NCBI GenBank assembly: GCA_963697775.1
Contig: CAVOPH010000003.1
Coordinates: 2,234 to 66,233 of the forward strand
Direction of reading: 5' to 3'
Source: an uncultured Acidobacteriota bacterium
GTDB lineage: Bacteria; Acidobacteriota; Vicinamibacteria; Vicinamibacterales; 2-12-FULL-66-21
DNA: 64,000 nucleotides
The notes under the pieces are model-generated. The model searched no databases. It saw only the letters and a program-made list of their open reading frames with translations, and was not told the DNA's origin. The position numbers and the translations under genes are program-made. Each line of letters begins with the position of its first letter. Positions within the stretch are counted from its first letter, which is position 1. Below are positions 2,131 to 30,397 of the stretch, piece after piece.

Positions 2131-2192
2131 CGTGGAACGTCAGAGTTGCTGTTCCTGCGGTCCCCGTGATCACCGTGATCTCGGCAGACAGC

Positions 2193-12000: not shown

Positions 12001-14424
12001 GTTCGTCGTCGGAGATGGCCTGGCCGACGATTTCGATCTGCCTTGCTCGATCGGCAGCTTGTAGAGGTAGACGGCGATGCCCGGCACCGGCGTCACGCCG
12101 TCGACGCAGGAACAGGGTGCCGGCCACGCTGCCGACCGACTCGAGCACGATCGTGGCGGAGACTTCCTCGCCCGACCCGCGTGATGTCGACGGTGACGCG
12201 GCCGCTCGATGCCCAGCGCGTCGCTCACGGCGACGATCTCGCGGCGGCCGAGCGGCACGTCGGGCAGCGTGAAGTGGCCCGTCGCGTCCGTCGTCACCAG
12301 GCTCAGCCCGCCGCCGACGCGCGCGCCCGCAACGCCGGTGCCGGCGGCATCCAGCACGACGCCTTTGACGTGCCGAGGCCGCCGGAGATCACGATGTTGA
12401 CGTTGCCGGTGGCGTCGGCTGCCAGGATCAGGCTGGCCTCACCTTCCTGCAGCGTGCCTGATCGAAGGTCGTCACGCGCAAGCTGGCCCGCCGGCACGCC
12501 GGGGAACGAAACGCGCCGTCTGCATCGGTCGTGCCGAGGGCGATCGCGCATCTCCTCCGGGGATGCCCGGACAGCCGACTCCCGGCTGGCTTCCGCCGGT
12601 GTAGTAGACGACGATCGGCAGGCCGGCGAGGGAGCCAGGCCGTGCTTCGCAGCACGTGACCGGTCACCGTGCCCCGTCTTGACGACGATGGCTTTCGGAC
12701 TGTCGGCCTTCAGCAGCACGAAGTCGCGTGACGTCGTCGCGCCGGCGAACGGAATGTTCTCGCTGATCGACATCTGCGCGTTCGCCGTGGGATTCACCGC
12801 CTCGATGAAGATGTTGCCGACCGGCACGCGTGCGATGGTGAAGCGGCCGTCGGCGTCGTGGTCGCACCGTACTCGCTCTGGTCGGTCAGGCTGGTGATCC
12901 GGATCGCGGTGTCCTTCGAGCGGCGTGCCGCTTCGCCGAGCGTCCGGCCCTGCAGCGTGCCGCGGCCCAGCAACACGATGTCGACGTTCAGCCGCTGGCC
13001 GTTGCGCTGCGACGTTGAACCGCAGATCGCGGAACTCGTCGGTCTCGGGGTCGACCGCGAGGATGCGACGGCGCTGCGCAGCACGTAGTCCCACGAGTAC
13101 TTGCCGTCTGCGTCGGCGCTCTTCGAGCTGATGCCGACCCAGTGGATCTCGCCGACCGCAGCCGGGCATGGTAGAACAGCCGCACGCTCGCGAACGGAAC
13201 CGGCGAGCCCTCGGCGCGCAGCACGCGGCCGGACACGACGCCGCGCGACGTCGTCGACGGTGATTTCGATCGGCGACGTCTGCGCGCCCATCGACTGGCC
13301 GCGCAGGTCGGCGACGTCCTGAATCGTGATCGTGCGCGGCACGAACGGACCGATCGGATCGCGCAGCGCGAGGAACGCGATGCGCCCGCCCGGCTGCAGC
13401 GCCACGCCGACGACCGCGTTGCCGTCCAGCGAGTAGTGGGTGATGTCCTCGGCCGTGAACTTGTCCTGCACGCTCTGCGCGGTGACCTCTTCGCTGAACA
13501 GCACCGCGACGATGCGGCCGGCGCCCAGAGCCCGGTCGTCTTGCCGGCGTCAACGCACACCTGATCCGCCTGAACCTGCTGCACGACGCCGATGACGGAC
13601 GGGGCCGGATCGACCACCGCGAACGACGACCGGTCGCCACGCGATCGCGCCGGCGACGCCAGTCTCGACCGACAGCGCGATACGGATCCGCTGGAGCAAA
13701 TGGCAGCGCCGGGAGCCTGCGCCGGATCGACGTTCTGGAAGACGAACTGCCGCAGTGCCCTGCGCGTCGGGGACGACGACGCTGAGCGTGAACGGCAGCG
13801 GTGACATCCGGCAACGCGATCGAGCCGGATCGTGAAAGTGCCCGGATCCGGCGCCGCGATCATCGCCAACTGCGCAGTCGGCAACGGCGCTGCCGCGCCA
13901 AACGGCAGGTAGTCGCCGAACGGAATCTCCTTGATGATCTTGCCGTGCGAGCACTGCCGCCGAGCGCTGCGTCCGCTCCGTCGACGAGGGTCAGCGTCAC
14001 TCGGCAGTGGACCCGGCGCCGACGAGCAGAACCGAGATGTATGCCGGCCGGTACGAGATCTTCTCCGCGAGGTCGTGATGGAACGCGGCCGCGCCCGGCA
14101 CTGGCGAGATCGGGCTGCATCAGCGCGGCCACGGCCTGCGCGAACACGTCGCCGCGCGACGAGCGTGCGGCGCAGCTCGTCGAAGCCGGCGAAGTCGGTC
14201 CTGGCGAAGTCGAGGTCGTCCGGGTTCGTGATGCGGTCCGGGAGCCGCGCGTAGTTGCTGCCGATGAAGTCCATCGCCAGCTGCGACGCGCTGTCGCGCA
14301 GCGGCTCGTGCAGGGTGACGCGCAGGCCGGCCTCGGCGACCTCGATGGCGCGATCCCAGATCAGCTTCTTCGAGAAGCGCTGCACGTCCGTCGGCAGCGG
14401 CGGCCGCGGAGCGGTCGCCACCGC

Positions 14425-14907
14425 CTAGGCCTTGCCGAGCAGGCCGATCGCCGCAGTTCGCAGATCGATCGGCAGCGTCCCCGCTTCCTTCGGCAGCACC
14501 AGCGAGTCGGGCGACAGCGGCACGCCCAGCTCGCCGACCGCGGTCTTCAGTGCGAACCGGCCGGTGACGTTCTCGTCGGAGTCGAGCGTCGCGGCGGTCA
14601 CTTTGCCGCTGACCTTCGCGATGAGATCGAAGCTGACCGATCGCGAGTCGCCGGGCGCAATGGTCTCGATCTGGCGGGTCGGATCGCCGACGATCGTCGC
14701 GCCGCTGACGACTCGTGGATACAGATTCAGGCTGACGAAGTTCGCCGGCGAGGGGCTGGTGTTGGTGACGGTGACGTCGAGCGTGTACGGCTCGCCCGCC
14801 GTCACGACCTCTGGATGCGTGAAGGTCAGCGTGAACGTCGGGTTGCGCACCAGCACCGCGCCGGCGGCGCGGCCGCGCACCGTCACCGGGACCGATCGGC
14901 AGCCCAT
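14425..14907 (-). CDS. Giant gene 1 fragment (CARDB-like module), ends at TAG 14425-14427
   Basis: ORF 14425..14907: TFTHPEVVTAGEPYTLDVTVTNTSPSPANFVSLNLYPRVVSGATIVGDPTRQIETIAPGDSRSVSFDLIAKVSGKV. Confidence 0.65.
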   Translation of the reverse strand: MGCRSVPVTVRGRAAGAVLVRNPTFTLTFTHPEVVTAGEPYTLDVTVTNTSPSPANFVSLNLYPRVVSGATIVGDPTRQIETIAPGDSRSVSFDLIAKVSGKVTAATLDSDENVTGRFALKTAVGELGVPLSPDSLVLPKEAGTLPIDLRTAAIGLLGKA

Positions 14908-15605
14908 TCAGCGTGCCGGCAATCTCCATCTCGACGACGTGGCTGCCTTCGCGGCGGCCTTCGACCAGGAACTCCGCGTTGCCGGTCTCGCCTGGACCGA
15001 TTCCGTTGACATCGTCCGCCGTGCCGAGCTTGCCGTCCGGCCCCGGCTGCACGACCGGCTGGATGCGCGGCACTTCTCCCTGCGCCGTCCGCCCCATGCG
15101 CAAGCGGATCGTCGGGAGATCCGACCACGGTGTCTGCGCCGGGCGGCAGCACGATCTCGGCCTGCAGATCGGTGACGACCAGGTTCGAGCCGGCCGGCGC
15201 GACGTTGCCGACCATCAGCATCACGCTGAAGAACTGGTTGAGGAAGCCGATGTCGCCGGGAATGACGATGACGCCGGGAATCGGCGGCACGAAGAAGTTC
15301 TGCCCCGCCAGCTCCGGCATCTTCAGCGTGAAGCCCACGACGTTGAGGTTCGGAATCTGCGTCTGGATCCGCTTCAGCGTGTCGGGAATGATCGTTTGAA
15401 GGCTCGGCAGCCCGGCTGTGACCGATACCGGGCAGATCGACCTGCTGTTCCCGGCGTCCTCCGCGCCCTGAAGCGTGGGCAGGACGACGGTGAAATTGAT
15501 CGGGACGGTCTTGCCCTCGATCGCGAACGCCGCGGCGAAGTTGTAGGCCTGGAAGTTCGACTTGTCGAAGACGATTCCCTTCTCGCGGATTTCGGCCGCG
15601 GTCAA
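14883..15605 (-). CDS. Giant gene 1 fragment (N-terminal region, no family recognised)
   Basis: ORF 14883..15605. About 15100-15605 reads TAAEIREKGIVFDKSNFQAYNFAAAFAIEGKTVPINFTVVLPTLQ...NLVVTDLQAEIVLPPGADTVVGSPDDPL. Confidence 0.6.
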   Translation of the reverse strand: MTAAEIREKGIVFDKSNFQAYNFAAAFAIEGKTVPINFTVVLPTLQGAEDAGNSRSICPVSVTAGLPSLQTIIPDTLKRIQTQIPNLNVVGFTLKMPELAGQNFFVPPIPGVIVIPGDIGFLNQFFSVMLMVGNVAPAGSNLVVTDLQAEIVLPPGADTVVGSPDDPLAHGADGAGRSAAHPAGRAAGAGRQARHGGRCQRNRSRRDRQRGVPGRRPPRRQPRRRDGDCRHAEWAADRSR

Positions 15606-16080
15606 GCGGCCGCGCGGTCACCTGGGTGACGAGCAGTCGATCGATGACGTCGATGACGACACTTTCGGGCGTGCCGCGCAGAACGACTTCGCCGTTGCTG
15701 ATCAGCCGGATGTTGTCGAGCGTGTGCTTGCCGGCGACGGTCAGCGGCGGAATGTTGAACGGCGTGTTCGGCTTGACCGTCAGCTCGATCGGCGTCGGGA
15801 ACGTCGGGCCGCGCAGCGTGGCTTTGACGACCGCGTCGGGCGCGAACGGCGGCAGGTTCCCGGGCGTCTGCGGCGCGACGAAGATCGTGCTGACGATCGT
15901 CGCGATGTCCTTCGGGACGGTCTGCTGCGCCGGCTCGACCTTGAGGCCGAGGCCGAAGAGGATGATGTCGTCCTTCGCGAGGAAGCGATCCTTCTGCTGC
16001 GCAGACACGTGCGTCGTCCCGATGCTGGCGACGCCAAGCATCAGAGCGATCCACACGATCCGCACGCGAAGTGTTCTCAC
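14908..16080 (-). CDS. Giant gene 1, N-terminal fragment with signal peptide
   Basis: ORF 14908..16080. GTG start at 16080 with AAGGA 6 nt upstream. Signal-like MRTLRVRIVWIALMLGVASIGTTHVSAQQ. Sensible only to about 15600, after which it becomes Arg-rich. Confidence 0.65.
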   Translation of the reverse strand: MRTLRVRIVWIALMLGVASIGTTHVSAQQKDRFLAKDDIILFGLGLKVEPAQQTVPKDIATIVSTIFVAPQTPGNLPPFAPDAVVKATLRGPTFPTPIELTVKPNTPFNIPPLTVAGKHTLDNIRLISNGEVVLRGTPESVVIDVIDRLLVTQVTARPLDRGRNPREGNRLRQVELPGLQLRRGVRDRGQDRPDQFHRRPAHASGRGGRREQQVDLPGIGHSRAAEPSNDHSRHAEADPDADSEPQRRGLHAEDAGAGGAELLRAADSRRHRHSRRHRLPQPVLQRDADGRQRRAGRLEPGRHRSAGRDRAAARRRHRGRISRRSACAWGGRRREKCRASSRSCSRGRTASSARRTMSTESVQARPATRSSWSKAAAKAATSSRWRLPAR

Positions 16081-16088
16081 GCTAGTCC

Positions 16089-16874
16089 TTATGGCAAGTG
16101 ACAGTCGGCTTCGGTTCGCTGAAGCAGGTCGATCCGTATGCCGAATCTCACGGCGCTCTCACTGCTCACACGTACGGCGTAGTCGCCGTCTTCAAGGAAC
16201 TTGATCAACTTGGTTTGGAACGTGGAGTTTGCGCTGACGTCGCGCAGGTTCAGTTCGACCGTCAGAAAGCCCGTCTGCAGGCTTGTCGCTTGAACTACGT
16301 AGCATCCGCGCGACGGCGCGTGGAACCTGAAGAGCGTTCGGTTCAACAGCTTGTTGCCGCCGTCAGTGGTGAGTGATCGGTCCGAACAGATCCCGGGTCT
16401 GCAACGGCACGCCACTGAAGAAATCGCTGGCATCGGTCTCCTCTGTATGCCCGATTGGGAGAACGGTGTACAGGGACTGGCCCGTCGCCGAGTACCGTCG
16501 CCGGCACCGATGTTCTCTCCGGCGGCTAAAGTGTCAATGTCTGTCGCAGCCGCTGCATTCGCACTCTTTAGCGCCTTCAGGAAACTGAAGATGCTGGTAA
16601 AGGCCGGAGTGTTTCGCGTCGCGACAAGGGCGTCATAAATGGGACGGAAACCGAGCGCGACGTGATCCGGCGTCGCCGTTCCGTCGCTGTTCAAGTCGTT
16701 AGGATCGATGCCATCGAAGAGGTCATAGATGACCTCGCTGACGGACGCTTCCGAGTAGAAGCCGTCGGAAAGGAAGGTCGACCCCGGTATCGGCCGCAAG
16801 TGATCATCCGTGTGATCGACCTCCACGTCTGTACCAAGACCCTCCCCCCTGATGAGCGCCAGCGGTATCGACAT
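16089..16874 (-). CDS. Giant gene 2, C-terminal fragment (PPC-like terminal domain)
   Basis: ORF 16089..16874. The end reads LFRFHAPSRGCYVVQATSLQTGFLTVELNLRDVSANSTFQTKLIKFLEDGDYAVRVSS. The stretch at about 16385-16495 reads better in another frame (YSATGQSLYTVLPIGHTEETDASDFFSGVPLQTRDLFGPITH), suggesting two compensating breaks. Confidence 0.55.
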   Translation of the reverse strand: MSIPLALIRGEGLGTDVEVDHTDDHLRPIPGSTFLSDGFYSEASVSEVIYDLFDGIDPNDLNSDGTATPDHVALGFRPIYDALVATRNTPAFTSIFSFLKALKSANAAAATDIDTLAAGENIGAGDGTRRRASPCTPFSQSGIQRRPMPAISSVACRCRPGICSDRSLTTDGGNKLLNRTLFRFHAPSRGCYVVQATSLQTGFLTVELNLRDVSANSTFQTKLIKFLEDGDYAVRVSSESAVRFGIRIDLLQRTEADCHLP

Positions 16875-17632
16875 ACAAAGGATCCTTGCCCAGCCACTTC
16901 AGGACGATTCCGGCAAATGCGGTTGCGAATCCTTCGCTAAAGGCCGCCGCGGGATCCAGAATGTCTCCGTCTTCGTGCGTGCTACCGGGCGAATCGCTCC
17001 GGCTGATAACGGCATGGAGATAGTGCGCCCACTCGTGCAGAATGACGCCGTCGTCGTATTCGTCGGTGTCGTGATCCTCTGACCCGTTGAGCAGGATGCT
17101 CCCGGTGTTCGTCCCGGTGACCCTGGAATAGGCGGTGTCACCGAGATTGTTGGCAGGGCTCCAGTAGACGATGAGCGGCGGCAAGGTGATGTTGCCGACG
17201 CTCGCCCGCACGAACTTCTCGGCATCGTGAATCGTGTCGATGATTGCAAACGGCGCAGCTTCCCGTGTGCCCGAGTAGCGCCTCGCGCTGTTGTCCCAGC
17301 CAGATTGAAGTGTGATGTCTTTGGTAACGGGCGACGCACCCAGCGGCACACTGACGCGGGCGGTGTAGACGTAGCAAAGGAGATCCGTCGCGGGGCACGC
17401 AGTGGGCGCTGTGTTGTAAACCGCAACGTGCGGCTGCTTCGGATCTCCCAGCGCAGCCTTGACGGCTATCGTGACGACGGAATTGTGAGGCGCTACGAAC
17501 GAGTAGTAACCGCCATCAGTCGTGTTCGTCCTCTCGATGACATTGTCGGCCGCATCTCTCAACTCGACGACGACCCCGCGGGCTGGGAGCTGCTTTTCAT
17601 CGTCGTAGGTCAACCCCACGGTCCGATCGGCC
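16804..17632 (-). CDS. Giant gene 2 fragment: gluzincin-type zinc metallopeptidase domain
   Basis: Frame of ORF 16804..17907. HEWAH is at 17023-17037 and SEGFATAF about 30 residues downstream (about 16921-16935). There is no start codon or signal peptide of its own after the stop at 17633. The sequence continues from ...GVIKYHV of the upstream fragment if one base is removed. Confidence 0.6.
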
Positions 17633-20600
17633 TCATACGACGTGGTACTTGATGACGCCTGACAGATTGGGCGGATCGGCCGACAGCACATCGATGCCAC
17701 GTGCGTGGGCGATATACGCCAACCCACGCGCGTCATCGGACTGGAGGCCGCCGATGCCCTGTGGATAGGCGAGCTCATAAAGCTTGCGGTCGGTGCGGCT
17801 GGAGAACGGATCAGCCACATCGAAGATGAAGAAGCCTTCGCCGGCCGCTGTTCCACGGTCGCCACCAGCGAGCAGGCGCCGCCCGCCACTGGCAACCGCC
17901 AGCTCACGGATGATGCCCGGGTGATTGACGTGGCCGATGAGCATCGGGTTGTCGGGATCCGTCACGTCGAGAATGTCAATCCCGCCAATGCCCGCCACAA
18001 AGAGCAGATCGAAGATCTCGTCGGCCGTGATCTGTCCATCAGCGTTGCGGTCAACCCGGACGCCCTCAGCCGCAATCAGCCGCCGCGGCCTCACGTTCAA
18101 ACCGACCGAGGTGATGAAGGACAGGTTCGCGTCGAACACGTCCAGCGAGGCTGGCGCATCGAACGCGTTGTTCGCCCCGAACAGCCGTCCCCCAATTGCA
18201 GCGACGTCGCGGTAGTCCCCTGAATAGAGCCCTTCTGGTTGCCGCAGGTTGTAGTCGACCTCTGGAATGTTGTTGCCGATATCGACCGCCATGATCCCGA
18301 TCTCGGTCACAGCCATGTATGCGGCGACGCCGGCCGTGAGCTGAATCGTGGCGACACCGCGGGCGGCTCCCACCCCGCTGAAGGTGCCGTGCCGGTTGAA
18401 GTTGTTCAGCTCGCCCGGATTCGCCGTCAGAATCTTTGCGCCGAGCTCGCACGGCTTGGCTGGATTCGTCACGTCGATGAAGGCAATCGTCGCGTTGGCG
18501 GTGTTGTACGAGCTGACGACCGCGAGATCGCCGGCGAACTTCGTACCGAGCGGAATGTGATCGGAGCACGACGGCACGGGGAACGGCTGCCCGTTCGCCT
18601 GCTTCCTCACAGTGACGAGCGCGCTGGGGTTGATCGCGATGCGCTTCGGGACAACGTAGCTCGAAGCCTGGCCCATCTTGACCGGGTTGGCAGGGTCGGT
18701 CACGTCAACGACGTTCGCAACGGGCGCAACACCCCGAATCGAAGGAATGGCGGTCAGAGTGGTCATTGCCGATCCGGTGGCGCCGACCGGATGGGAAACC
18801 GCCAGATCGCCGAATGGCACGGGATTCCCCACCGAGTCAAAGAGCTGAAACGTGCTCAGCTTCCGGGGCGTGAACGTCGTCAGCAGTATCGACCTGGCCG
18901 CGATCGGCCGCCCGAGCAGGTCAGTCAGCCCGATGAGATTGAGCTGGTAGACGCCGTCGAGCGCCAGCGGCTTGTCGGGTACGAACGTAAGAACCTTGTC
19001 GCGTTCCGACAAGCGAACCTGTCCAGTTATCCTTTGACCCGTGGTGGCGTCGTAGACCGCGAATCGGAATACGTTCGTGTTGAGAAGAGGCGCCGAGAAC
19101 GCCAGTGTGATCGACCGGGCCGGATCGAAGTCGATGAAGCGATTGACGTCGGTCAGGAGATCCGGCACGACGCTGTCGGGCCCGTACACGTCCAGCAGCA
19201 GCGTGTCGTCCGGATAGGGAGCGGGCCCGACCAGCTGCCGTCGAACCGCCTGGGTGCTCGTGTTTTTCACCGTGACGCGGAAATTCGGCAGCGCCTGCTC
19301 GTCAACAGTTCCGTTTTCGTACTCGACCTGAACGACGAACGTGTCGGTGATGTTCGCGTCGAGGGCGAACACGAATCCGCCGGTGACGACCCGGCCTGTG
19401 TTACCGGCGGTGACGTCGAGAATGACGTCGGTGCGTACGACCGTGAGCGCACCACCAGCGCCTGGCCGCTTGGTCAGCAACTTCACCAGCTTGACGCCAG
19501 CGTTCTCGTCGAGCGCCGGCTGACCTGACGGCCGGTTCAGGTTGTATTCGATGATTTCAGCGCGAGTGGGATCGATTGCGCCGGGAACCGCACGGACCAG
19601 GAGGCTTCCGGTTCCAGAGAGATAGGCGACTGGATTGATCGGAACGACCGGCCGCTGCCCCGCCACCCCGATCGCCTGCGCCGTGTAGGTATCGGCGAGG
19701 GTCCCTTCGACAATCATCCTGACGTTCGAAGACTGGCGGCCGCCAGCAAACGCAACCGTCGCCCTGGTCTTCGTACGTGTGTTCTGGACGAGCAACGATT
19801 GATCGCCAGATAGCAACTCGGTCTTCGGGATTTCGATCACGACAAACGACCGGGGTGCGGCCTTTGTGCAATCAGCAGGAAGACCATGGGCTGCGCACTC
19901 CGCCGGCCCGAGTGTCCTCGTCGTCGTCGTGAGCACGCCGCTGATGACGGCCCGCGAGTGAACCTCGATGGCAATCGGATCCGCGTCGCTGCCCTCGATG
20001 CTGGCTGCGCCTTCAAACGGCGGATAGAAGCTCGATGTCGACTGGCGGCCCGATGCATTGTTGGTGACGACCACCTCGTCATCGTCCGGCGTCACCAACG
20101 CGGCGGGAATCGGGACGGTCACACGGTTCGGGGCAACCGTGACGCGACCGCTGAGCACCGGCAGGCAGACCCTTCTCGGAATGAGTCCGAGGACGGCTTG
20201 AATCTGTTCGTCGAGCGAAACGCCGAAAGGCAGCTGCAGCGAGGTGGACGTCTGTGCGAAGTCGTCTGCCAGCATCTGCAAGGCGTCGAGGAACCCCGAC
20301 CCGCTCGAGATCGCCGTGAACGTCACCCCCATCGGCCGCGCCGATTTCAGGAAGCCGTAGACGCCGCTGCCGGTGACGCCGGGACATGGAGGCGACGACG
20401 TGGCAATGCGGCCGTTGATGAGGCGTGCGGTATCGGCGACGTTCAGCGCGGCTGGCGCGCCGGCAAGCGTCAGGACCTGCCCGACCACCCATCGATCGAC
20501 CAACGTGTCGCTGGCGTGAGCCGGAATGCTGACGTTGATGTAGCTCGCGGGAGTCTGACCGCCGAGATCGAGCTGCAGGCCGCCGGCGTAACTGAAGACT

Positions 20601-21934
20601 TGCTTCTGTTCCGGGGTCAGTTGAACCGGGAAGTCGGCTTCAGCGACCGGCTTCACCGTAATGATGGTGCCGGACGGGAATGCGCCATCAGGCACGTCGA
20701 GCGCCACGCAGGTCGATCCCGACAGAGATCCATCACCGAGCGTCGTGCAACCTGGCCCGAGGACCCGGCCTCCGTCGCTTCCAACCGCCGTTGACAGGCT
20801 CCCGTCCGCGTTCTGACGCTGGAAGCGCGGGATGGAGACGACCGTCTGATTGCCCGCCGGGTCGGTGACGATCAACTGCAGCTTGTCGGCGAGCGACGCC
20901 GTCACGATCACCACGAACCCGCCGTTGGGATCGAGGATGACAGGCGTGATCGTCCCCTGGGTGAGGTTCCTGATGAGCACGGTGTCGTGCGCACCGGCCG
21001 TCCCTTGGGTGGCGGTGATCGTGGTCTTGAAATCGCCGCCGGGAATCGTCGCCGACATACTCCCTGCGGGAGGCGGCGGCGGGGCGACCGTGTCCAGGCT
21101 CGTGAACGTAGTGACAAATGCCGACGGCAGCGGCCTGCCGAACGGGTCCTTGACGCCTTGAGTGATCGTGAGCGTGTAGACCGTGTTGGGCTGGAGCGCG
21201 TCGACAGGGCGCAGCGTCGCGACGGTGTTGCCGGAGGTCAGTGCCAACGATGACACGGCAACGCCGGCGCTCGACGTGAGCTGGATCGTCTGAAGCGTCG
21301 CGGTCGCGGGATCGATCGCGCTGGCAAAATGGATGATGACCGGGTCCGCGAGCGCGACGTTGACGGCTCCGTTTGCTGGCGTGACGGACGTCACGGTCGG
21401 TGGCCGCGCGACGAGCGGCAGATCGAGCGGAATCACCTGTCGTGGCGTCGACGAGGCGACTTGCGCACTGACGGTGTCGGTCCTCAGAAGATCCAGCGCA
21501 TTCACGCTAACGTCGCCGAGACCAATCGTGGAGATGTAGCGGCCGGTTGACTGCGACATCGAGACGATCGCGTTCGTGTTGCTCGACACCAGCGCACCCG
21601 CAAACGGCCCATTGGATCCAGTGACGCTACCGGCCACGAAGGCGAGCGGCGTCGTGGCGCGAAGGAACACGTAACGGCCAGGCAACTGGATCCCTTCGAA
21701 CGTCACATCCGTGCCGGCGAGCACGCGAGTGGAGACCAGCCGATCGTTCGTCAGTGCGCCGAGCCCCATCAGCACGAAGCGCGTCTGTCCGCCGAGCTCC
21801 TGGAGCCGGGTCAAGAGGAAGAGATCGGTGTCGGTCGCCTGAGCGGGACGCAGAATGGAAAACGTCGCCGGTGCTGACAGTACGGTCGCAAATGAAATGG
21901 ACGTCGCGCTCACGAAGTCGAAACCAGTGGGCAA
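17633..21934 (-). CDS. Giant gene 2 fragment (1433 codons): Big_5/SbsA-like domains and C-terminal LVIVD-repeat beta-propeller
   Basis: Uninterrupted ORF 17633..21934. Big_5-like: TVTSVTPANGAVNVALADPVIIHFASAIDPATATLQTIQLT. LVIVD-type repeats: VANVVDVTDPANPVKMG, IAFIDVTNPAKPCELG, GGIDILDVTDPDNPMLIG, GFFIFDVADPFS. EF-hand-like loop: DRNADGQITADE. No signal peptide at its own N-terminus. Confidence 0.75.
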   Translation of the reverse strand: MPTGFDFVSATSISFATVLSAPATFSILRPAQATDTDLFLLTRLQELGGQTRFVLMGLGALTNDRLVSTRVLAGTDVTFEGIQLPGRYVFLRATTPLAFVAGSVTGSNGPFAGALVSSNTNAIVSMSQSTGRYISTIGLGDVSVNALDLLRTDTVSAQVASSTPRQVIPLDLPLVARPPTVTSVTPANGAVNVALADPVIIHFASAIDPATATLQTIQLTSSAGVAVSSLALTSGNTVATLRPVDALQPNTVYTLTITQGVKDPFGRPLPSAFVTTFTSLDTVAPPPPPAGSMSATIPGGDFKTTITATQGTAGAHDTVLIRNLTQGTITPVILDPNGGFVVIVTASLADKLQLIVTDPAGNQTVVSIPRFQRQNADGSLSTAVGSDGGRVLGPGCTTLGDGSLSGSTCVALDVPDGAFPSGTIITVKPVAEADFPVQLTPEQKQVFSYAGGLQLDLGGQTPASYINVSIPAHASDTLVDRWVVGQVLTLAGAPAALNVADTARLINGRIATSSPPCPGVTGSGVYGFLKSARPMGVTFTAISSGSGFLDALQMLADDFAQTSTSLQLPFGVSLDEQIQAVLGLIPRRVCLPVLSGRVTVAPNRVTVPIPAALVTPDDDEVVVTNNASGRQSTSSFYPPFEGAASIEGSDADPIAIEVHSRAVISGVLTTTTRTLGPAECAAHGLPADCTKAAPRSFVVIEIPKTELLSGDQSLLVQNTRTKTRATVAFAGGRQSSNVRMIVEGTLADTYTAQAIGVAGQRPVVPINPVAYLSGTGSLLVRAVPGAIDPTRAEIIEYNLNRPSGQPALDENAGVKLVKLLTKRPGAGGALTVVRTDVILDVTAGNTGRVVTGGFVFALDANITDTFVVQVEYENGTVDEQALPNFRVTVKNTSTQAVRRQLVGPAPYPDDTLLLDVYGPDSVVPDLLTDVNRFIDFDPARSITLAFSAPLLNTNVFRFAVYDATTGQRITGQVRLSERDKVLTFVPDKPLALDGVYQLNLIGLTDLLGRPIAARSILLTTFTPRKLSTFQLFDSVGNPVPFGDLAVSHPVGATGSAMTTLTAIPSIRGVAPVANVVDVTDPANPVKMGQASSYVVPKRIAINPSALVTVRKQANGQPFPVPSCSDHIPLGTKFAGDLAVVSSYNTANATIAFIDVTNPAKPCELGAKILTANPGELNNFNRHGTFSGVGAARGVATIQLTAGVAAYMAVTEIGIMAVDIGNNIPEVDYNLRQPEGLYSGDYRDVAAIGGRLFGANNAFDAPASLDVFDANLSFITSVGLNVRPRRLIAAEGVRVDRNADGQITADEIFDLLFVAGIGGIDILDVTDPDNPMLIGHVNHPGIIRELAVASGGRRLLAGGDRGTAAGEGFFIFDVADPFSSRTDRKLYELAYPQGIGGLQSDDARGLAYIAHARGIDVLSADPPNLSGVIKYHVV

Positions 21935-24900
21935 CGACGACGCCGAGCTCGTTCAAAGACATCGAACGAAGTTCAACTGGAACACTCGAGGGGACGCTGC
22001 CCGCACCAATGTCCAGCCGCTCCCCATTTGCACCGGTAATCGATCCACCGCCATTCCCGACCAGGGGAACCTCATGGACGGCCTCTTCGGGCGCGCGCAT
22101 CTCGACCGTGATCACCCCTTTCTCGAGGGTCAGCGGCTCGAAGACGAGCGACGGGCTCACTGGGAAGCCGGCCGCCATCACCGGAGAAGGACCGCCGGGT
22201 ATCTGATAGAGGACGAGATCCTGCTCAACCGGCTCGAGGTGCATCTCGGTCTGCGAATAGAACTGGTACGCCTCGGTGATACGCGAGTGCACAACCGTTC
22301 CGCTCGAAACCAAGACACCGGCGCCTGCAACCGTGCCGCGCACCACCGACTTCACGCCGGGCTTGTAGAACAGAACCTTGGGCTGCGGAACGACGAGTCC
22401 GGTCGCCTCGAGAGGAATCAGGAGCGGGGTCACCCCGACCACGAGTTCGCCGGGGACCGGTTGCGGCGGAACGGCCGGCGCAGCATCCGCAACGACCCAG
22501 GCGTACTGACCCGTGCCCGGAATGCTTCCTGTGAGCAGTGCCTTGTCGGATGGGAGCGCGTTCGTGGCGAGCGCTCGCCACGCGCGTGACTGTTCGTCCC
22601 ACTGTACGAACGTCACCAGCCTGCCCGCCTTGAGATTCAACGCGTTCGGTGATGCGAGCGACGCCGGCGTCGCGAACGGGATCCCGTGCGGGCCAATGTC
22701 GATGATGTCTATTGGCGTCCATCCAGGAGGCAGCAGTCCCGGCAGCGATTGACGACTGAGCGGCGTCATCGTCACGTCAGCGCTCGACGCGAGAGCCCCG
22801 GCCGGAATCGTCAGCGTGACGTCGGGTCCGCCAAGGGCCACGTTGCCAAGCGAGGGATCCTCAGCGGCCGAGACTTCCCGCTGCCATGCCTCCAGGAACG
22901 TCGCGCGGTCACCTGTGATCGTTGCACCCGACAGTCCGTCAACATGAGCGCTCGCGGCCGCTGCCGTAATTCGTGCATCGACAACTTCGATGGCGGTATC
23001 CGGCTTGATGACCGCCGGTCTGTTGAGCACCGACCAGCCAGCCTTGGCAATCTGAACGATCGCCGTCCCTTCGGTTCCATGAATGACGTAGCGGCCTCGG
23101 GCATCCGAAAGGGCGGACTGCGAATACGGGACGCCACGTGAATCCGTCCCCACGAGCGATGCCGTCGCGCCCTCGACAGGCAGGCCGCTGTTGTCGTCGT
23201 ACACCTCACCCGTCAGGACGCCTTCGCCGGGTGCGATGACCTGAACGTCCCTGGCGTCGATCGCTTCCAATCCTGCGAAGTCGAGCGCCCGCGCTTCGAC
23301 GTGGAGCCGACTGCCCCCCACCGCGCCAGGCGCGACAGCCACCGTCGTCTGGTACGGCGGATCGATGAGCGTCGCGATGCGCTTCCCATCGACAAAAAAG
23401 CGGACAGACGCGACGCCTCCCAAATCCGACACGGTGGCTGAGACGGGCACCGTCGTGCCCGCGTGAGCCGCGGCAGGAGCCGTCAGGCTGAGCGACGGCG
23501 GAATCGTGTCTGGGGTCTGAACGATCTCGATTGATGCGGTCGCGGTTGCCCGGTTGTTCGATCCATCAACGGCCTGAGCCGAGACCGGCAACATTGAACC
23601 CACGACTGCACTCAGCGGAATGACGTAGGTCGCCTCGTAGGGGGGCGCCGTCAGCGATCCGATGGTGACCGAGTTTGCGCCAAGGATCACAGTTGCGACG
23701 CCCACGTTGTCCGTGGCCGTGGCCACGACCTGGAGCACGGTTCCCGGCGCAGCCTGCGCGGGCGCCTTGACGTTGACGATGGGCTTTTCGGTGTCAGGCT
23801 CGGAGACGATCGTGATGGTCGCCGCCGCGGTTCCGACGTTCCCGGCCGCGTCGCGGGCAGAGGCGCCGACCTTCACCGTAGTTCCTGGAGCGACGAGATC
23901 AGGAACATTAATGATTCGCTGGTATGGTGCGCTCGGCAGTTCGATCGGATCGGTGTCGTTGACGTCGAGCGTCACCGACTGAACGCCGATGTTGTCGGTC
24001 GCCTCGGCCGTCATCGTGACGTGCGCACCGGGCAGCGCTTCTTTGGGTCCGCTGAGCGTCACAACCGGTGGCGCACGATCGGGCGCGGCGGCAATCGTCG
24101 CAGTCGTTGCCGCGGCGTCCGATACGGCGCCGTGCGAGTCGGTCACAACCAGGGTGACGGTGAATACGCCGACGCTCTGGTAGACGTGAAACGGTTTGCG
24201 ATCCGTGCTGGTCGTCTGATCGCCGAACGACCACGCGAAGGTGAGTACGTCATTATCGGGGTCGCTCGAGCCGCTGCCGTCGAAGGTCAGGCCAACACCT
24301 ACATCAGCTGACTGCGCGGGACCAGCCTGCGCGACCGGAGAATGATTCACTGCCGCGACAACCGTGATGGTGACGTCCGCGCTGCTCGAGAGGAGCGAAT
24401 CGCTGGCGGTCAGCCGCAGGACGTAGGTGCCGGGTTGAGTGAATGTCGCGGTCGTGCCGGGTGCACCGGCGCTGCTGAACGTCACCGTCCCCGGACCGCT
24501 GAATTTCGTCCACAAGATCGTCAGCGTTCCCCCAGCCGGCAGGCCGTCGTCGGTTGCGGTCCCGGTCAACGCCGCGGTGTTGGGTAGCGTAATCGTCTGC
24601 GGATCGCCGGCGCCGACGACTGGCTTTTGATTGACCGGTGGAGGCGGAGCGGTGACGGTGACCGACGCGGGCGCGGTCGCGCTGCCGCCGTGGCCGTCGG
24701 TGACGGTCAGCGTCGCGGTGAACGGGCCAGCAGTCGAGTACGCGTGCGTCGGCGAAGCGCCCACCCCCGTTGCACCGTCGCCGAAGTTCCACGTGAACGA
24801 CAGCGTGTCGCCCGCATCGGGATCGGAGCCGCTGCCGCTGAAGGAAATCGCTGCACCGGTCAACCCGGAATACGGACCGCCCGCTGATGCCGTCGGGTTG

Positions 24901-25127
24901 TGATTCGGCGAAGGCGGCGCGGTGACAGTGACCGACGCGGTGGCCGTCGCGCTGCCGCCGTGGCCGTCGGTGACGGTCAACGTCGCGGTAAACGGACCAG
25001 CAGTCGAGTACATGTGCGTCGGCGAAGTGCCCACTCCCGTTGCACCATCGCCGAAGTTCCACGCGATACGACAGCGTGTCGCCAGCATCGGGATCGGAGC
25101 CGCTGCCGCTGAAGGAAATCGCGGCAC
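21627..25127 (-). CDS. Giant gene 2 fragment: PKD domains, Ig-like domains, CarboxypepD_reg-like domain
   Basis: ORF 21627..25127. PKD signature WNFGDGATGVG.SPTH.Y...G.FTATLTVTDGHG. Four Ig-like modules with ATDN(I/V)GV or SDLGGV. GEVYDDNSGLPVEGATASLVGTD...SDARGRYVI. Below about 21935 it turns Arg-rich and the sense continues in ORF 17633..21934. Confidence 0.7.
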   Translation of the reverse strand: MPRFPSAAAAPIPMLATRCRIAWNFGDGATGVGTSPTHMYSTAGPFTATLTVTDGHGGSATATASVTVTAPPSPNHNPTASAGGPYSGLTGAAISFSGSGSDPDAGDTLSFTWNFGDGATGVGASPTHAYSTAGPFTATLTVTDGHGGSATAPASVTVTAPPPPVNQKPVVGAGDPQTITLPNTAALTGTATDDGLPAGGTLTILWTKFSGPGTVTFSSAGAPGTTATFTQPGTYVLRLTASDSLLSSSADVTITVVAAVNHSPVAQAGPAQSADVGVGLTFDGSGSSDPDNDVLTFAWSFGDQTTSTDRKPFHVYQSVGVFTVTLVVTDSHGAVSDAAATTATIAAAPDRAPPVVTLSGPKEALPGAHVTMTAEATDNIGVQSVTLDVNDTDPIELPSAPYQRIINVPDLVAPGTTVKVGASARDAAGNVGTAAATITIVSEPDTEKPIVNVKAPAQAAPGTVLQVVATATDNVGVATVILGANSVTIGSLTAPPYEATYVIPLSAVVGSMLPVSAQAVDGSNNRATATASIEIVQTPDTIPPSLSLTAPAAAHAGTTVPVSATVSDLGGVASVRFFVDGKRIATLIDPPYQTTVAVAPGAVGGSRLHVEARALDFAGLEAIDARDVQVIAPGEGVLTGEVYDDNSGLPVEGATASLVGTDSRGVPYSQSALSDARGRYVIHGTEGTAIVQIAKAGWSVLNRPAVIKPDTAIEVVDARITAAAASAHVDGLSGATITGDRATFLEAWQREVSAAEDPSLGNVALGGPDVTLTIPAGALASSADVTMTPLSRQSLPGLLPPGWTPIDIIDIGPHGIPFATPASLASPNALNLKAGRLVTFVQWDEQSRAWRALATNALPSDKALLTGSIPGTGQYAWVVADAAPAVPPQPVPGELVVGVTPLLIPLEATGLVVPQPKVLFYKPGVKSVVRGTVAGAGVLVSSGTVVHSRITEAYQFYSQTEMHLEPVEQDLVLYQIPGGPSPVMAAGFPVSPSLVFEPLTLEKGVITVEMRAPEEAVHEVPLVGNGGGSITGANGERLDIGAGSVPSSVPVELRSMSLNELGVVVAHWFRLRERDVHFICDRTVSTGDVFHSASRSGDRHRSLPLDPAPGARRTDALRADGARRTDERSAGLHSRARRHGCDVRRDPVAWPLRVPSRHDAARLRGR

Positions 25128-25980
25128 CAGTCAACCCGGAATACGGACCTCCCGCTGATGCCGTCGGGTTGTGATTCGGTGGAGGCGGTGCGGTGACTGG
25201 TGACCGACGCGGTCGCCGTCGCGCTGCCGCCGTGACCGTCGGTGACGGTCAGCGTCGCGGTGAACGGACCCGCCGTCGAGTACGCGTGCGTCGGCGAAGT
25301 GCCCACTCCCGTTGCACCATCGCCGAAGTTCCACGCGAACGACAGCGTGTCGCCAGCATCGGGATCGGAGCCGCTGCCGCTGAAGGAAATCGCGGTACTG
25401 GTCAAGCCGGAATACGGACCACCAGCCGATGCCGTCGGGTTGTGATTCGGTGGAGGCGGGGCGGTGACTGTGACCGATGCCGTGGCCGTTGCGCTACCAC
25501 CGTGACCATCGCTCACAGTGAGCGTCGCGGTGAACGGACCCGCCGTCGAGTACGCGTGCGTCGGCGTTGCGCCGACTCCCGTCGCACCATCGCCGAAGTT
25601 CCATGCGAACGACAGCGTGTCGCCCGCATCGGGATCGGAGCCGCTGCCGCTGAAGGAAATCGCGGCGCCGGTCTGGCCGGAATACGGACCGCCGGCAGAT
25701 GCCGTCGGATTGTGATTCGGTGGAGGCGGTGCAGTGATAGTGACCGCTGCGGTCGCCGTCGCGCTGCCGCCGTGGCCATCGCTCACAGTCAGCGTCGCGG
25801 TGAACGGACCGGCCGTCGCGTACGAGTGAGTCGGCGAAGCCCCGACTCCCGTCCCACCATCGCCGAAGTTCCATGCGAACGACAGCGTGTCGCCAGCATC
25901 GGGGTCCGAGCCGCTGCCGCCGAAAGAAATCGCGGCCGCGGTGAAGCCGGAATATGGACCGCCGGCCGATGCCGTCGGGT
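24628..25980. repeat. Tandem 270-bp DNA repeat (5 units, roughly 90 percent alike by eye) encoding the PKD array
   Basis: The unit boundary word TTGTGATTCGG recurs at 24898, 25169, 25440 and 25710, with variants at 24628 and 25980. Spacings are 271, 271, 270 and 270 nt. The two 271-nt units each carry one extra base relative to their neighbours (GCGATACGACAG vs GCGAACGACAG near 25068; GTGACTGGTGACC vs GTGACTGTGACC near 25198). Confidence 0.8.
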
Positions 25981-26677
25981 TGTGATTGGTGGATCCACCG
26001 CCGGACGTGATCGTGAAAGCGCCTGGAAGGATGGCAATCTGCGCGCTGGTCACCTGCACGGTGCGGACGCTCGCCGCCGTGGTCGCGGGTATGGAAATGT
26101 TCGCGAGCAGCGTCGTGTCGGACTGCACGGTGACCTTGTTGACCGTCACCCCTGTTCCAAATGTGACTTGCGTGTTTCCGGCAACGAAGTGTGTGTTCGC
26201 TGAGCCAGTAATGCGGACGTCCTGATTCACGGCGCCCGCAGGCAAGGAAGCGATCCCAGGCAGCGAGATCGCGATCACATCGAGCGACTTGCCGTCGCTG
26301 AAGCTCCCGGTGGTCACATTTCGGACACGAAGCGCCGTGACTCCAACGGGCAATCCAGCCGGAACCTTGACGGTCAGCCGGCGCGAGCCCGCTGTGGCGT
26401 CAACGGTCGCGATAGCGCTCGGAACAGCAGTAAGTGCGGGGCCACTCGCAGGGATGAAGGAGACTTCGTTCTTGGACGCGGTCGGATCGAAGCCGGTGCC
26501 GACGATGTTGATGGTCGCGAGGGTGGAGGCACCGGTTGGCGTGACCGACGTCAGCAGCCCGGACTGCGCGCTCGAGATCGCCCCAACCATCAGGACGAGC
26601 AGCAGTGCGCCCGCGCGGACGCCGGATCGCCTGGAGGTCAACGAAGCGGCGATTGATACGGTCCAGGGCCGGGGCAC
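24977..26677 (-). CDS. Giant gene 2, N-terminal fragment: signal peptide, two IPT/TIG-like domains, PKD repeats
   Basis: ORF 24977..26677 starts at GTG 26677. An alternative TTG at 26641 overlaps the PEP-CTERM gene stop as TTGA. Signal-like SRRSGVRAGALLLVLMVGAISSAQS. INIVGTGFDPTASKNEVSFIP, then three PKD copies. Sensible only down to about 25198. Confidence 0.7.
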   Translation of the reverse strand: MPRPWTVSIAASLTSRRSGVRAGALLLVLMVGAISSAQSGLLTSVTPTGASTLATINIVGTGFDPTASKNEVSFIPASGPALTAVPSAIATVDATAGSRRLTVKVPAGLPVGVTALRVRNVTTGSFSDGKSLDVIAISLPGIASLPAGAVNQDVRITGSANTHFVAGNTQVTFGTGVTVNKVTVQSDTTLLANISIPATTAASVRTVQVTSAQIAILPGAFTITSGGGSTNHNPTASAGGPYSGFTAAAISFGGSGSDPDAGDTLSFAWNFGDGGTGVGASPTHSYATAGPFTATLTVSDGHGGSATATAAVTITAPPPPNHNPTASAGGPYSGQTGAAISFSGSGSDPDAGDTLSFAWNFGDGATGVGATPTHAYSTAGPFTATLTVSDGHGGSATATASVTVTAPPPPNHNPTASAGGPYSGLTSTAISFSGSGSDPDAGDTLSFAWNFGDGATGVGTSPTHAYSTAGPFTATLTVTDGHGGSATATASVTSHRTASTESQPDGISGRSVFRVDWCRDFLQRQRLRSRCWRHAVVSRGTSAMVQREWALRRRTCTRLLVRLPRR

Positions 26678-27655: not shown

Positions 27656-30397
27656 TTAAAACGGCTCTCCGATCAGCACGTAGCCGGCCCAGTAGAACGG
27701 GCGCGCATCCAGGCGGACGTTGCCCAGCGGAGTGCGAACCACCATTGAACCGCTCCGAAGCTTTTGCAGCAGATCGAGCTGAGCGCGTCTGAGAGCCGCT
27801 CGTTTGTCGAGCCCCGCAAGCCAGTGCGTGTAGAACCCTTTCATGATCGCGGCGCTCGGTTGATCGGCAACATCCCAGAGCGTCGCTACGACGGTGGGCG
27901 TGCCGGCATAAAACAACGCTCTCGCCATCCCGGAGATCCCGTCGCCCGACGGCTTGCCCGTGGCGGTTCCGCATGCGCTCAACACCACGATCTCTGACGA
28001 GAGAGAGAGCTCGTACACCTCCCGGACCGTGAGGTGGCCATCCGACTCTGGACGGTCGCCGCTCTCGCCGAGCGCCAGGTAGGAATCGAGCGGCTCGTCA
28101 TCCCGAATCACGGCGTGTGTCGCGAAGTGAATGACGCGCTTGTCGGTCAGTTCCCGGCGCACATCCTTCTCGAGCGCCTGGGTCCTCGCGAGCACGCTGG
28201 TTCGGCCGCGGCCGAATACGTCTCTGATTGCAGCGGCTTCTCCGATCGCGGCAGACAGCGATGGAAGCGGCGCCTGGCCGGGCGGCGTGGAGATTGGTGC
28301 GGGATCAGCCACCACGAGAGAACTGCCCGACGAATTCGATCGGGACTGTCGCGCCAGGCGTTCGGTAAACGCAAAAGCGGACGCGGATGGAGCGTAGGCG
28401 ATCGCGTAACGCTCCACCAGGTAGGTTCCAGCCGGGTCCACAAGCGCCGCGAACGACAGGCGAAACAACGGCCCGTGCGGCAGGATCGTCAGGGCGCTCC
28501 CGTCAGGAGGCAGCCACTTCGCTACGGGCCCCACCAGCAACGTGTACAGGCGGCGGAACGCGGTCGCCTCGGACGAGTCCGGCTTGGGGACAGCAGCCTG
28601 CACCATGCGCTCGAGCGTGGCGCGGCTCACCACGATGCGTGCGCTCCGGACGGGGTGCCCTGGTTGGATCACCCACGCAAAGACTTCTTCGTCGTTGACC
28701 CAGTAGGCGACCACGGTGGTGCGGAGCCGGGCTGCCGTGGTCGCGATCTCGTCGGCCGAAGCGGTCTTCGAAGAGGCGTAACTGCTCAGCGTCAAATCGT
28801 CACGACGGGAAGCTGCGACCGGCCTGTTGAGGCCGCCTCGAGTCTCCAACCCGGATGGCGCCGGGTCGAGCGCCGGAAGCAATGAGGACGACGACGCCGG
28901 CGGCGGCGCATCCGGCTTCGGTGGTGACGCGATCAGCGCTTTGCCCGCCAGCAGATCGAGGAACGCGCGGGCGCGCGCCTGTTCGCTGACGATCAGCGCC
29001 TGCTCCGGCTGACCCCGTTGAATCATCAGCGCCAGCGTCAGGCCGTACAGTGACTGATGGACTTCGCTGAACCCTCGCTTCATGAAGTCCAGCGGCACGA
29101 GCCTGGACCTGATCTCTTCGACGCGTCGCACCGCTTCACGGGCATCATCCAGCGCGGCGTCGATTCGGCCGGCCGCGCGATTGATCGAGGCCCGCTGATG
29201 AAACAGATCGACGAGATAGTCGCGGTTGGCGGATCGAAGGCCGTACTCGATCGATCGATCCGCATGCTGCAGCGCCGTGTCGTACTGCTGCTGCTCCAGA
29301 TAATTCATGGCCAGATTGCCATGGCGATAGGCCAGCAGGTACGGATCCGTTTCGCGCGTGATGACATCTTCGAGCAGCCGGATGGCGCCCGGCACATCGC
29401 CACTGGCCGCGTAGGCAGCCGCCAGATTCCCCTGCTGAAAGTTCACGATCCGCTCGGAACCGGTCTTGCGCGCGAGCGCGAGCGCACGTTCGTATGCCAC
29501 GCGCGACTCGGCCGTTCGGCCGAGCAGTCCCAGCGCGATGGCTTTCGAGTTCAGGCTCTGCACGAGGCCTCGAATATCGCCGATCCGTTCCTGGACCTTC
29601 CCGGCCTGGTCGTAGAATTCGAGGGCCCGTTCGGGTTGTCCATGGACCCGATACATCCGCCCGACACTGACGTAGGCGTCAGCCAGGCTGGCAGGCCTAT
29701 CGGCTTCCTTGAATTTGTCGATCGCCAGATTCAAATCCGCAATGGCATCGTCGAATCGTCCGGCCCCGAATGCGTGGTCGGCCCGCAGATGAAGCGCTCG
29801 TGCTTCCAGGCCGGCAGAAGGGATGCGGCGCGCAAGTAGCAACGCTTCGTCGATCAATCGCGCTTCCTCCGGGTCGCCGCTTGGCAGCGCGTAGCATAAG
29901 TTGATGAGCGTCGATGCCCGATCCGCATCGTCGCCAATCTCCGTGAACACGGCCAGAGACGTCTCGAACTGCCGGCGGGCGCCAGGCAGATCGCCCTTTG
30001 CCATGGCGACAAACCCCAGCACGTCCGCGGCATGGGCTTCCTGACGGCGATCGCCCAGGGTCTGCGCCAAGTCACGCGCGCGAACACCCTCGGCCACCGC
30101 GGTGTCGTAGTCGCTGAGGTGGTACGACGCGAGCGCAGAGCCAACCCGCGCCTGCAGTTCGGTCACGCGATCGGCGCTGGCAATGGCCAGCCGAAGAGCC
30201 TGGTCGAAGCACGGCTTCGCTGGACCATTTTGCTCTAACGTCGCAAGGCGCTGGCCTTCTTTGAGGAGATCCGGAACGGACGAGGAGGAACTACAGCTGG
30301 TCGACGACGGATCAGTCGACTGGGCGGCTGGCGCCGCGACGAGAACGCCCGTCCAGAGCACGAGCGTCAGCGAGCATAGGTGTCGTGACCCTGCCAC
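27656..30397 (-). CDS. Exported TPR-repeat CHAT-domain (caspase-fold) protease
   Basis: ORF 27656..30655. The most plausible start is GTG 30397, giving MAGSRHLCSLTLVLWTGVLVAAPAAQS (signal-like). Long TPR-like helical repeat region. C-terminal CHAT-type block with candidate dyad His in VIHFATHAV (codon 28115-28117) and Cys in VVLSACGTA (codon 27971-27973). No frame break. The start is uncertain and overlaps the 3' end of the anti-sigma ORF. Confidence 0.8.
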   Translation of the reverse strand: MAGSRHLCSLTLVLWTGVLVAAPAAQSTDPSSTSCSSSSSVPDLLKEGQRLATLEQNGPAKPCFDQALRLAIASADRVTELQARVGSALASYHLSDYDTAVAEGVRARDLAQTLGDRRQEAHAADVLGFVAMAKGDLPGARRQFETSLAVFTEIGDDADRASTLINLCYALPSGDPEEARLIDEALLLARRIPSAGLEARALHLRADHAFGAGRFDDAIADLNLAIDKFKEADRPASLADAYVSVGRMYRVHGQPERALEFYDQAGKVQERIGDIRGLVQSLNSKAIALGLLGRTAESRVAYERALALARKTGSERIVNFQQGNLAAAYAASGDVPGAIRLLEDVITRETDPYLLAYRHGNLAMNYLEQQQYDTALQHADRSIEYGLRSANRDYLVDLFHQRASINRAAGRIDAALDDAREAVRRVEEIRSRLVPLDFMKRGFSEVHQSLYGLTLALMIQRGQPEQALIVSEQARARAFLDLLAGKALIASPPKPDAPPPASSSSLLPALDPAPSGLETRGGLNRPVAASRRDDLTLSSYASSKTASADEIATTAARLRTTVVAYWVNDEEVFAWVIQPGHPVRSARIVVSRATLERMVQAAVPKPDSSEATAFRRLYTLLVGPVAKWLPPDGSALTILPHGPLFRLSFAALVDPAGTYLVERYAIAYAPSASAFAFTERLARQSRSNSSGSSLVVADPAPISTPPGQAPLPSLSAAIGEAAAIRDVFGRGRTSVLARTQALEKDVRRELTDKRVIHFATHAVIRDDEPLDSYLALGESGDRPESDGHLTVREVYELSLSSEIVVLSACGTATGKPSGDGISGMARALFYAGTPTVVATLWDVADQPSAAIMKGFYTHWLAGLDKRAALRRAQLDLLQKLRSGSMVVRTPLGNVRLDARPFYWAGYVLIGEPF

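Follow-up and report, generated by a model that had tools for sequence, protein, structure and literature searches.

Secreted zinc proteases with accessory domains are among the closest known counterparts of the protein considered here. Enzymes of the thermolysin family are secreted and often carry trailing PPC or PKD domains, and the Vibrio protease PrtV (M6) and the clostridial-type collagenases (M9) likewise join a zinc protease to PKD or pre-peptidase-type accessory domains (PMC2613228, PMC4356367). For the state of the DNA itself, the nearest parallel is found in metagenome-assembled genomes (MAGs) built from Nanopore reads, where single-base indels split conserved, even essential, genes (PMC12313526; PMC9262707 on Nanopore indels), completeness is low despite high contiguity, and the damage is patchy and heavier near contig ends. 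Both parallels bear on a stretch of 64,000 nucleotides (hereafter the window) of contig CAVOPH010000003.1, from a Vicinamibacterales-type acidobacterial MAG (GCA_963697775.1). Positions 26677..16089 of its minus strand are, by conceptual translation, one predicted gene of about 3,530 residues. We consider it probable, with good confidence, that this is a single giant surface-protein gene with a C-terminal zincin and that its interrupted frame stems from long-read consensus errors.

Once seven sites are edited (junctions J1 to J7, Table 1), the repaired frame runs for 10,584 nt and 3,527 codons with no internal stop. A sequence-only reading of this DNA had listed five open reading frame (ORF) fragments and proposed that they form one protein; all five are present on the minus strand, and the unbroken frames of relatives span every junction. 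The sequence has a G+C content of 64% and a strong third-codon-position G+C signal, and codon-position G+C switches minus-strand frame at about 25100-25000, 21950, 17620 and 16900, with a brief excursion at 16500-16350. In a three-frame translation the sense carries on from frame to frame over each junction, as in two PKD units that read …ASVT/VTAPPPPNHNPTAS… and …DTLS/FAWNFGDG… (the slash marks the change of frame), and the codon-position bias is undiminished in the new frame past each break. A signal-peptide-like start is seen in the first fragment only, as had been claimed, and both the ORF listing and the three-frame translation agree with the further claim that the later fragments start mid-domain and without signal peptides. 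It had also been predicted that an ORF caller would fragment the gene; the public gene calls on this contig do include pieces of 295 amino acids (aa; P0168) and 245 aa (P0192).

The orthologue search covered 40 genomes related to the source genome (G000). In G013, a 2,398-aa open frame with 65% identity and its own signal peptide spans J1-J3, and J3 is also crossed by a 4,313-aa ORF in G033 and a 2,995-aa frame in G023. In the closest relative, G015 (63-91% identity), one frame of 1,115 aa leads from the propeller across J4, J5, J6 and J7. G020, a short-read-style assembly that is 98% complete, and G002 both stay in frame between the propeller and a homologous C-terminus, with the HExxH domain in between. 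Alignment to relatives, by which the sequence-only reading had hoped to find an uninterrupted orthologue, thus yielded frames in G013, G015 and others, and also the uninterrupted protein P0001 (3,246 aa). A single blastp high-scoring segment pair, 70% identical, joins P0001 to residues 493-3525 of the repaired protein and spans six of the seven junctions; over the C-terminal 516 residues P0001 is 67% identical. Six more uninterrupted giants of 3,100-4,031 aa in the protein database carry the same C-terminal module, among them NCBI MEO8677869.1 (4,031 aa, 'MAG: PKD domain-containing protein [Vicinamibacterales bacterium]'). A protease attached to about 3,000 residues of adhesin-type modules had been called unusual; within this lineage the architecture recurs.

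An operon of several surface proteins and a small protease would offer another account of the fragments, and a stand-alone C-terminal module of 520-700 aa is indeed the commonest form elsewhere. We regard it as very improbable, given later fragments that begin inside domains without signal peptides and orthologues that are single-frame over every junction. The relatives examined have no start codon or signal peptide at the junctions, and separate orthologous genes with their own starts, which the sequence-only reading had named as the contrary outcome, were not seen among them. Together with the relatives' unbroken frames, this upholds the reading of one gene.

Why the frame is broken in the deposited sequence can be approached from the genome as a whole, which comprises 17 contigs and 5.46 Mb with a marker completeness of 67%, a pattern typical of contiguous, indel-rich assemblies. 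We scanned all contigs with codon-position base frequencies trained on long ORFs and a seven-state Viterbi model in which in-frame stops were forbidden, counting as an event a direct same-strand frame switch after which the upstream frame meets no stop for over 30 nt. The whole genome has 1,095 events, or 20 per 100 kb, of which 782 (71%) are of the surplus-base type. A clean control (G033:C64, 137 kb, from a 100%-complete relative in 110 contigs) has 2 marginal events, 1.5 per 100 kb, so the source genome stands at about 13 times that rate; a sister MAG (G015:C12, 160 kb) has 18 events, 11 per 100 kb. Events in the source genome are over-dispersed, with a mean of 4.1 per 20 kb and a variance of 10.5, and the first 20 kb of this contig hold 15. 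Essential genes are affected: secA (G000:C11:25462-27862) lies in four pieces and three frames, and gyrA (G000:C16:95861-98279) in seven pieces and five frames. Within the giant gene, every lesion is a 1-base indel (six surplus bases and one missing base among the seven), and the 10.6 kb contain no nonsense substitution and no larger deletion. The genome-wide excess, the broken secA and gyrA, the 67% completeness, the intact codon bias and the lone extra bases in repeat units argue that the seven breaks are very probably consensus errors, of one base each, in a metagenome assembled from error-prone long reads, and not mutations of the organism.

Some observations pull the other way and should be weighed against this conclusion. 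Both rpoB and rpoC are intact in the source genome, and only one frameshift-like event falls in window 32-64 kb, as compared with the much denser 1-31 kb; the errors would therefore have to be patchy, and a real local decay of the locus is conceivable. The case for artefact is also statistical and comparative rather than direct. As for the sequencing platform, G015 is a Nanopore MAG of the Microflora Danica project (PMC12313526), G015 and G002 both bear 'MFD…' MAG names, and same-genus MAGs came from a Nanopore-only workflow with Flye and Medaka (PMC12313526); from these same-genus MAGs we infer a Nanopore origin for the source genome too.

If the breaks were real, the giant gene and an equally broken giant gene downstream would be pseudogenes recently inactivated in the population. 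This would account for a break density far higher in the first half of the window than in the second and for the unbroken rpoB and rpoC, and loss or variation is common for giant surface-protein genes. Nevertheless, we find it unlikely: secA and gyrA, which are essential, suffer the same type of break, the genome-wide rate is far above that of the clean control, decay has left only 1-base indels with a strong bias in one direction and neither nonsense changes nor larger deletions, and the codon bias persists past each break. The closest relative, moreover, shares none of the breaks. Its orthologue, intact at J4-J7, is broken elsewhere, close to positions 56-58, 553-588 and 952-956 in the 1,433-aa fragment as well as at its stop. 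The nearest relatives (63-91% identity), which lack the lesions, belong to other species. An ancient pseudogenisation was also considered and rejected on the same evidence.

The junctions themselves are informative about the kind of error. The break positions given by the sequence-only reading mostly agree with ours; those at 17633 and 16870, however, are ORF ends that lie about 8-21 nt from the likely lesions, and 16385 is about 20 nt off. In the PKD array, units 3 and 4 are 271 bp long, and a unit alignment gives each of them one extra A relative to its four sibling units. The surplus base at J4 generates the TGA that closes the 1,433-aa fragment, and the missing base at J6 opens a 110-nt out-of-frame stretch. 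Classical Nanopore errors are homopolymer deletions, whereas here the lesions are mostly surplus bases outside homopolymers (five of the seven sites). At J1-J5 and J7, dropping either of two adjacent unlike bases leaves a sensible codon. The alternatives at J1 (ACC or ACA) both occur among the sibling PKD units, and those at J2 are TTC and TAC (Phe or Tyr), with P0001 having Tyr there in one unit. These surplus bases may be both alleles of a strain polymorphism written side by side in the consensus, which fits J1-J5 and J7. If so, it would explain why the bias runs in one direction, why five of the seven sites lie outside homopolymers and why the lesions cluster in a surface-protein locus that varies between strains.

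That six of the seven breaks run in the same direction could also be expected of ribosomal +1 frameshifting or transcriptional slippage, by which the full-length protein would be made from the sequence as written. We find this virtually inconceivable, since the junction sequences have no motif in common, J6 runs the opposite way, and the same bias is seen genome-wide, housekeeping genes included. In all orthologues the sites are missing, and a single frame encodes the same residues.

The giant gene belongs to a single-strand surface-protein locus. The next gene downstream (window 1381-16080, minus strand), whose start at 16080 encodes a signal peptide (MRTLRVRIVWIALMLGVASIGTTHVSAQ…), is likewise shattered: the hidden Markov model (HMM) has 14 switches between 2.1 and 15.6 kb, 12 of which are surplus-base events. 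In G020 and G002 a conserved N-terminus of this gene comes immediately after the giant-gene orthologue, and the two giant genes thus make up a conserved pair. Upstream, a 999-aa ORF and its neighbour (window 27656-31454, minus strand) show another frameshift-like switch at about 30473.

In the repaired protein a predicted signal peptide is followed by about 200 beta-rich residues with no domain assignment and then by the PKD domains, K319L-like ones included. Three Big_7 domains come next, ahead of a stretch of about 1,300 residues that contains Big_5 and unassigned modules, and the LVIVD region and the C-terminal module complete the order. Pfam matches to the PKD array are strong (PKD_4 with E = 2e-64 and 1e-60; PKD; K319L-like PKD with E = 4e-24), and about 1,300 residues have no domain match in the Pfam scan of the gene's fragments. 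The LVIVD repeats noticed in the sequence-only reading are recovered above the PF08309 cut-off when the segment is scanned alone: the last 503 aa of the 1,433-aa fragment score 22.2 bits against a cut-off of 20.2, as compared with 15.7 bits for the whole fragment, and at least six motifs of the (I/V)D(V/I)(T/S)(D/N)P type lie between 18721 and 17657. The PPC-like end proposed earlier holds only as a weak resemblance, in that the window's own sequence has no PF04151 match and the G020 homologue falls below the cut-off (Table 1).

Table 1. Predicted features of the giant gene and the seven junctions at which its frame is broken (window coordinates; Ig, immunoglobulin; a slash in the first column of the signal-peptide row marks the presumed end of the peptide).
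Feature	Position	Strand	Basis or remark
Whole gene, conceptual	16089..26677	minus	GTG start at 26677, stop at 16089-16091; 3,527 residues once 7 single-base breaks are bridged
Signal-peptide-like N-terminus (…LLLVLMVGAISSAQ/SG)	26564..26677	minus	Read from sequence; same in P0001 and the G013 orthologue
Five tandem 270-bp units, one PKD domain each	24636..25993	minus	Tandem repeat finder: period 270, 5.0 copies, 90% matches
Three Big_7 bacterial Ig domains, approximate limits	23207..24074	minus	Big_7 E = 4e-14, 3 stretches
Big_5 (SbsA-type) Ig-like domain	21101..21406	minus	Big_5 E = 1e-24
Second, weaker Big_5	18896-19129	minus	23.8 bits
LVIVD-repeat region, presumed beta-propeller	17657..18721	minus	PF08309; recurring (I/V)D(V/I)(T/S)(D/N)P motifs
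Beta-sandwich resembling CarboxypepD_reg, SdrD_B or transthyretin domains, just before the putative catalytic domain	17335..17577	minus	Sub-threshold Pfam; model strands 21-97
HExxH domain, predicted thermolysin-like fold	16518..17265	minus	Invariant residues, AlphaFold2, Foldseek
Beta-rich C-terminal domain, weakly PPC-like	16092..16361	minus	G020 homologue: PF04151 22.1 bits, cut-off 25.9
J1, surplus A (GTCACC-A-GTCACC)	25198	minus	Not present in four sibling PKD units
J2, surplus A (TCGT-A-TCGCG)	25067	minus	Sibling units have TCGTTCGC
J3, one surplus base in GTTGCCCACTGG, exact base ambiguous	21925..21935 (~21930)	minus	G013, G033 and G023 frames unbroken here
J4, one surplus base in CACGTCGTATGA	17636..17645 (~17641)	minus	G015, G020 and G002 frames continuous
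J5, one surplus G in a G6 run (CATCAGGGGGGAGGG)	16844..16849	minus	Junction sequence and relatives
J6, one missing base (GGCGACG^GTACTCGG)	16493..16497 (~16495)	minus	G015 has uninterrupted DEYSATGKSLY
J7, one surplus base (CACCAC-T-GACGGC)	16362..16368 (~16365)	minus	Earlier frame regained

The C-terminal effector module, as modelled, is a beta-sandwich followed by a HExxH-x29-E domain of predicted thermolysin-like fold and a small beta domain. Our query for it (P0009, 379 aa) was window 17634..16497 read with one four-letter step over J5. The motif HEWAH lies at 17023-17037, as the sequence-only reading had it, whereas SEGFA is at 16924-16938 and not at about 16921-16935. Nine giant-type sequences share an invariant D-T-D-E-x-D, H-E-x-x-H-Y, a further His, L-D and E-G-x-A; across 96 diverse homologues the residues His200, His204 and Glu234 never vary, and Glu201 is conserved in at least 90%. 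An AlphaFold2 model from the 9 sequences was mediocre, with a predicted local distance difference test score (pLDDT) of 70 and thermolysin as its top match (E = 2.6e-5). It was superseded by a model from the 96 sequences (pLDDT 88.6; predicted template modelling score 0.91), in which helix 195-210 carries HExxH and helix 228-247 the Glu. In a Foldseek search of this fold against the PDB, ranks 1-19 are all M4 enzymes (E 1.6e-6 to 4.3e-4, probability 1.00, template modelling (TM) score 0.46-0.62), including thermolysin, gentlyase, ProA, Bacillus cereus neutral protease, aureolysin, vibriolysin, protealysin and pseudolysin, and M36 fungalysins come next. The modelled ligands follow the gluzincin (clan MA(E)) pattern, HExxH on one helix and a conserved Glu on the next, and zinc binding is predicted.

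Sequence models give a different picture. Pfam, run on the C-terminal 516 residues, one relative and 8 stand-alone homologues, found no peptidase family (E<=0.1) and only sub-threshold CarboxypepD_reg and SdrD_B; the NCBIfam scan returned nothing relevant to the HExxH module; and the only match of the 9-sequence profile in a PDB sequence search was a chance one, to the beta-sandwich. A search with PF02868 (Peptidase_M4_C) over the 40 relatives recovered genuine M4 genes in 31 of them, never at giant-gene loci. The spacing from the second His to the Glu is 29 residues in our module, where the Glu sits in AFxEGFA; the relatives' M4 enzymes read HELTH-x19-NESxSD. Nor does Pfam match the module to M6 or M9. 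Its HE[YW]xHY motif with a distant EG glutamate nonetheless has a resemblance to M9. Literature searches on HEWGH, HEWAH and HEWSH motifs gave unrelated matches only, plus CLCA, a different zincin, and those on Vicinamibacterales PKD metallopeptidases returned no paper. The sequence-only reading had proposed a gluzincin peptidase and had named, as the contrary outcome, a HExxH region that matches no peptidase family. The fold and the invariant residues support the proposal, no curated sequence model does, and the peptidase link was found by structure only. By fold and ligands, then, the domain is predicted to be a thermolysin-type gluzincin, and by sequence criteria it is not M4; proteolysis would be its expected activity.

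Several results count against the assignment and have to be kept beside it. The fold similarity is moderate, with TM scores at the values above and an identity of 10-13%. No curated peptidase model in Pfam or NCBIfam matches the HExxH domain, and the 96-sequence profile compared by hhalign with 12 of the relatives' M4 enzymes gave a negative result, at a probability of 8.6%. Catalysis, zinc binding and localisation are all predicted properties.

It is therefore worth asking whether the gene could be intact in vivo and its HExxH domain serve metal-dependent binding, or be some other zincin-like domain, without being proteolytic. The lack of a matching peptidase-family model, a Glu spacing of 29 residues as opposed to 19 in the relatives' genuine M4 enzymes, and the fact that an equivalent of thermolysin His231 could not be assigned would all fit such a domain. 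We nevertheless judge it rather unlikely, because the two His and the Glu are invariant and the general-base Glu is at least 90% conserved in 96 homologues, and because the fold search yields active metalloproteases only.

Outside the giant proteins the module is widespread. A related-loci search with a single protein sequence gave no match; matches came with an alignment as the query. In a profile search over 1.84 billion representative proteins, 6,619 proteins pass a threshold of E<=1e-3, and 1,227 clusters pass E<=1e-30. Most among the 150 best-scoring proteins listed are 520-700 aa long. The stand-alone consensus begins L-x-x-C-G-G-G, with the Cys in at least 90% of the 96-sequence alignment, a start which suggests that most stand-alone members are lipoproteins. 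In databases they go by 'hypothetical protein', 'carboxypeptidase regulatory-like domain-containing protein' or 'SdrD B-like domain-containing protein'. The hosts are mainly Gammaproteobacteria (Thiotrichaceae, Woeseiaceae, Cellvibrionaceae, Steroidobacteraceae), with Alphaproteobacteria, Campylobacterota, Ponticaulis, Henriciella, Planctomycetota, Lentisphaeria and Acidobacteriota among the others. In P0008, a 2,016-aa protein from an ENA metagenome, the module is fused to repeated bacterial TSP3 calcium-binding repeats and a Peptidase_C13 (legumain-like) domain; with upstream parts as different as these, the module behaves as a mobile C-terminal cassette. A tentative generalisation, plausible but far from secure, is that the module represents a large uncurated family of thermolysin-fold zinc metalloproteases, mostly stand-alone, and that Vicinamibacterales recruited the module to form the enzymatic head of surface proteins with 3,000-4,000 residues. 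Cultured carriers exist (Ponticaulis koreensis DSM 19734, Microbulbifer yueqingensis CGMCC 1.10658, Pleionea litopenaei with WP_309200935.1, and Arenicella xantha), which makes the activity of family members directly testable.

We hypothesize that the giant protein would be exported by Sec and then retained at, or released from, the cell surface. Its long Ig-like stalk and propeller might hold and position the zinc metalloprotease at or beyond that surface, and could themselves attach to polymers or particles or reach across a capsule. Cleavage of extracellular proteins for nutrition, or else the processing of surface proteins, might be the role of the C-terminal enzyme.

That the gene was 'hidden' very probably reflects an assembly artefact, and the gene itself adds a member to an uncharacterised class of giant acidobacterial PKD proteins that is already present in the databases. 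The practical consequence is that gene calls in this genome record are untrustworthy: a gene of 3,500 codons was deposited as several hypothetical fragments, and essential genes are broken too. Pseudogene counts or claims of 'gene loss' drawn from such MAGs would mislead. Of wider interest is the C-terminal domain, predicted to represent a thermolysin-fold HExxH family of more than 1,000 protein clusters that has no curated model.

Compared with known enzymes, the module resembles thermolysin (MEROPS M4) and the M36 peptidases in having HExxH on one helix, a Glu on the following one and a two-lobe fold. It differs from M4 in matching neither Peptidase_M4 nor M4_C, in giving no profile-profile match, in its x29 rather than x19 spacing, in having xEGFA instead of NExxSD, and in the beta-sandwich that precedes it, with no FTP/PepSY propeptide. 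In PrtV and the collagenases the protease is N-terminal and followed by one or two accessory domains, whereas in the window protein it would be C-terminal, behind about 3,000 residues. The closest likeness is to the giant 'PKD domain-containing proteins' of Vicinamibacterales and other Acidobacteriota, which include JGI 'PKD repeat protein' entries of 3,528-3,584 aa. None of these relatives is characterised, and, unlike them, the window copy carries seven frame breaks. PKD copy number also differs, the five-unit tandem array of the window corresponding to two units in P0001. The giants are nonetheless 33-67% identical to the window protein over the C-terminal 516 residues and have the same order of PKD, Big_7, Big_5, a propeller-like region and a C-terminal HExxH module.

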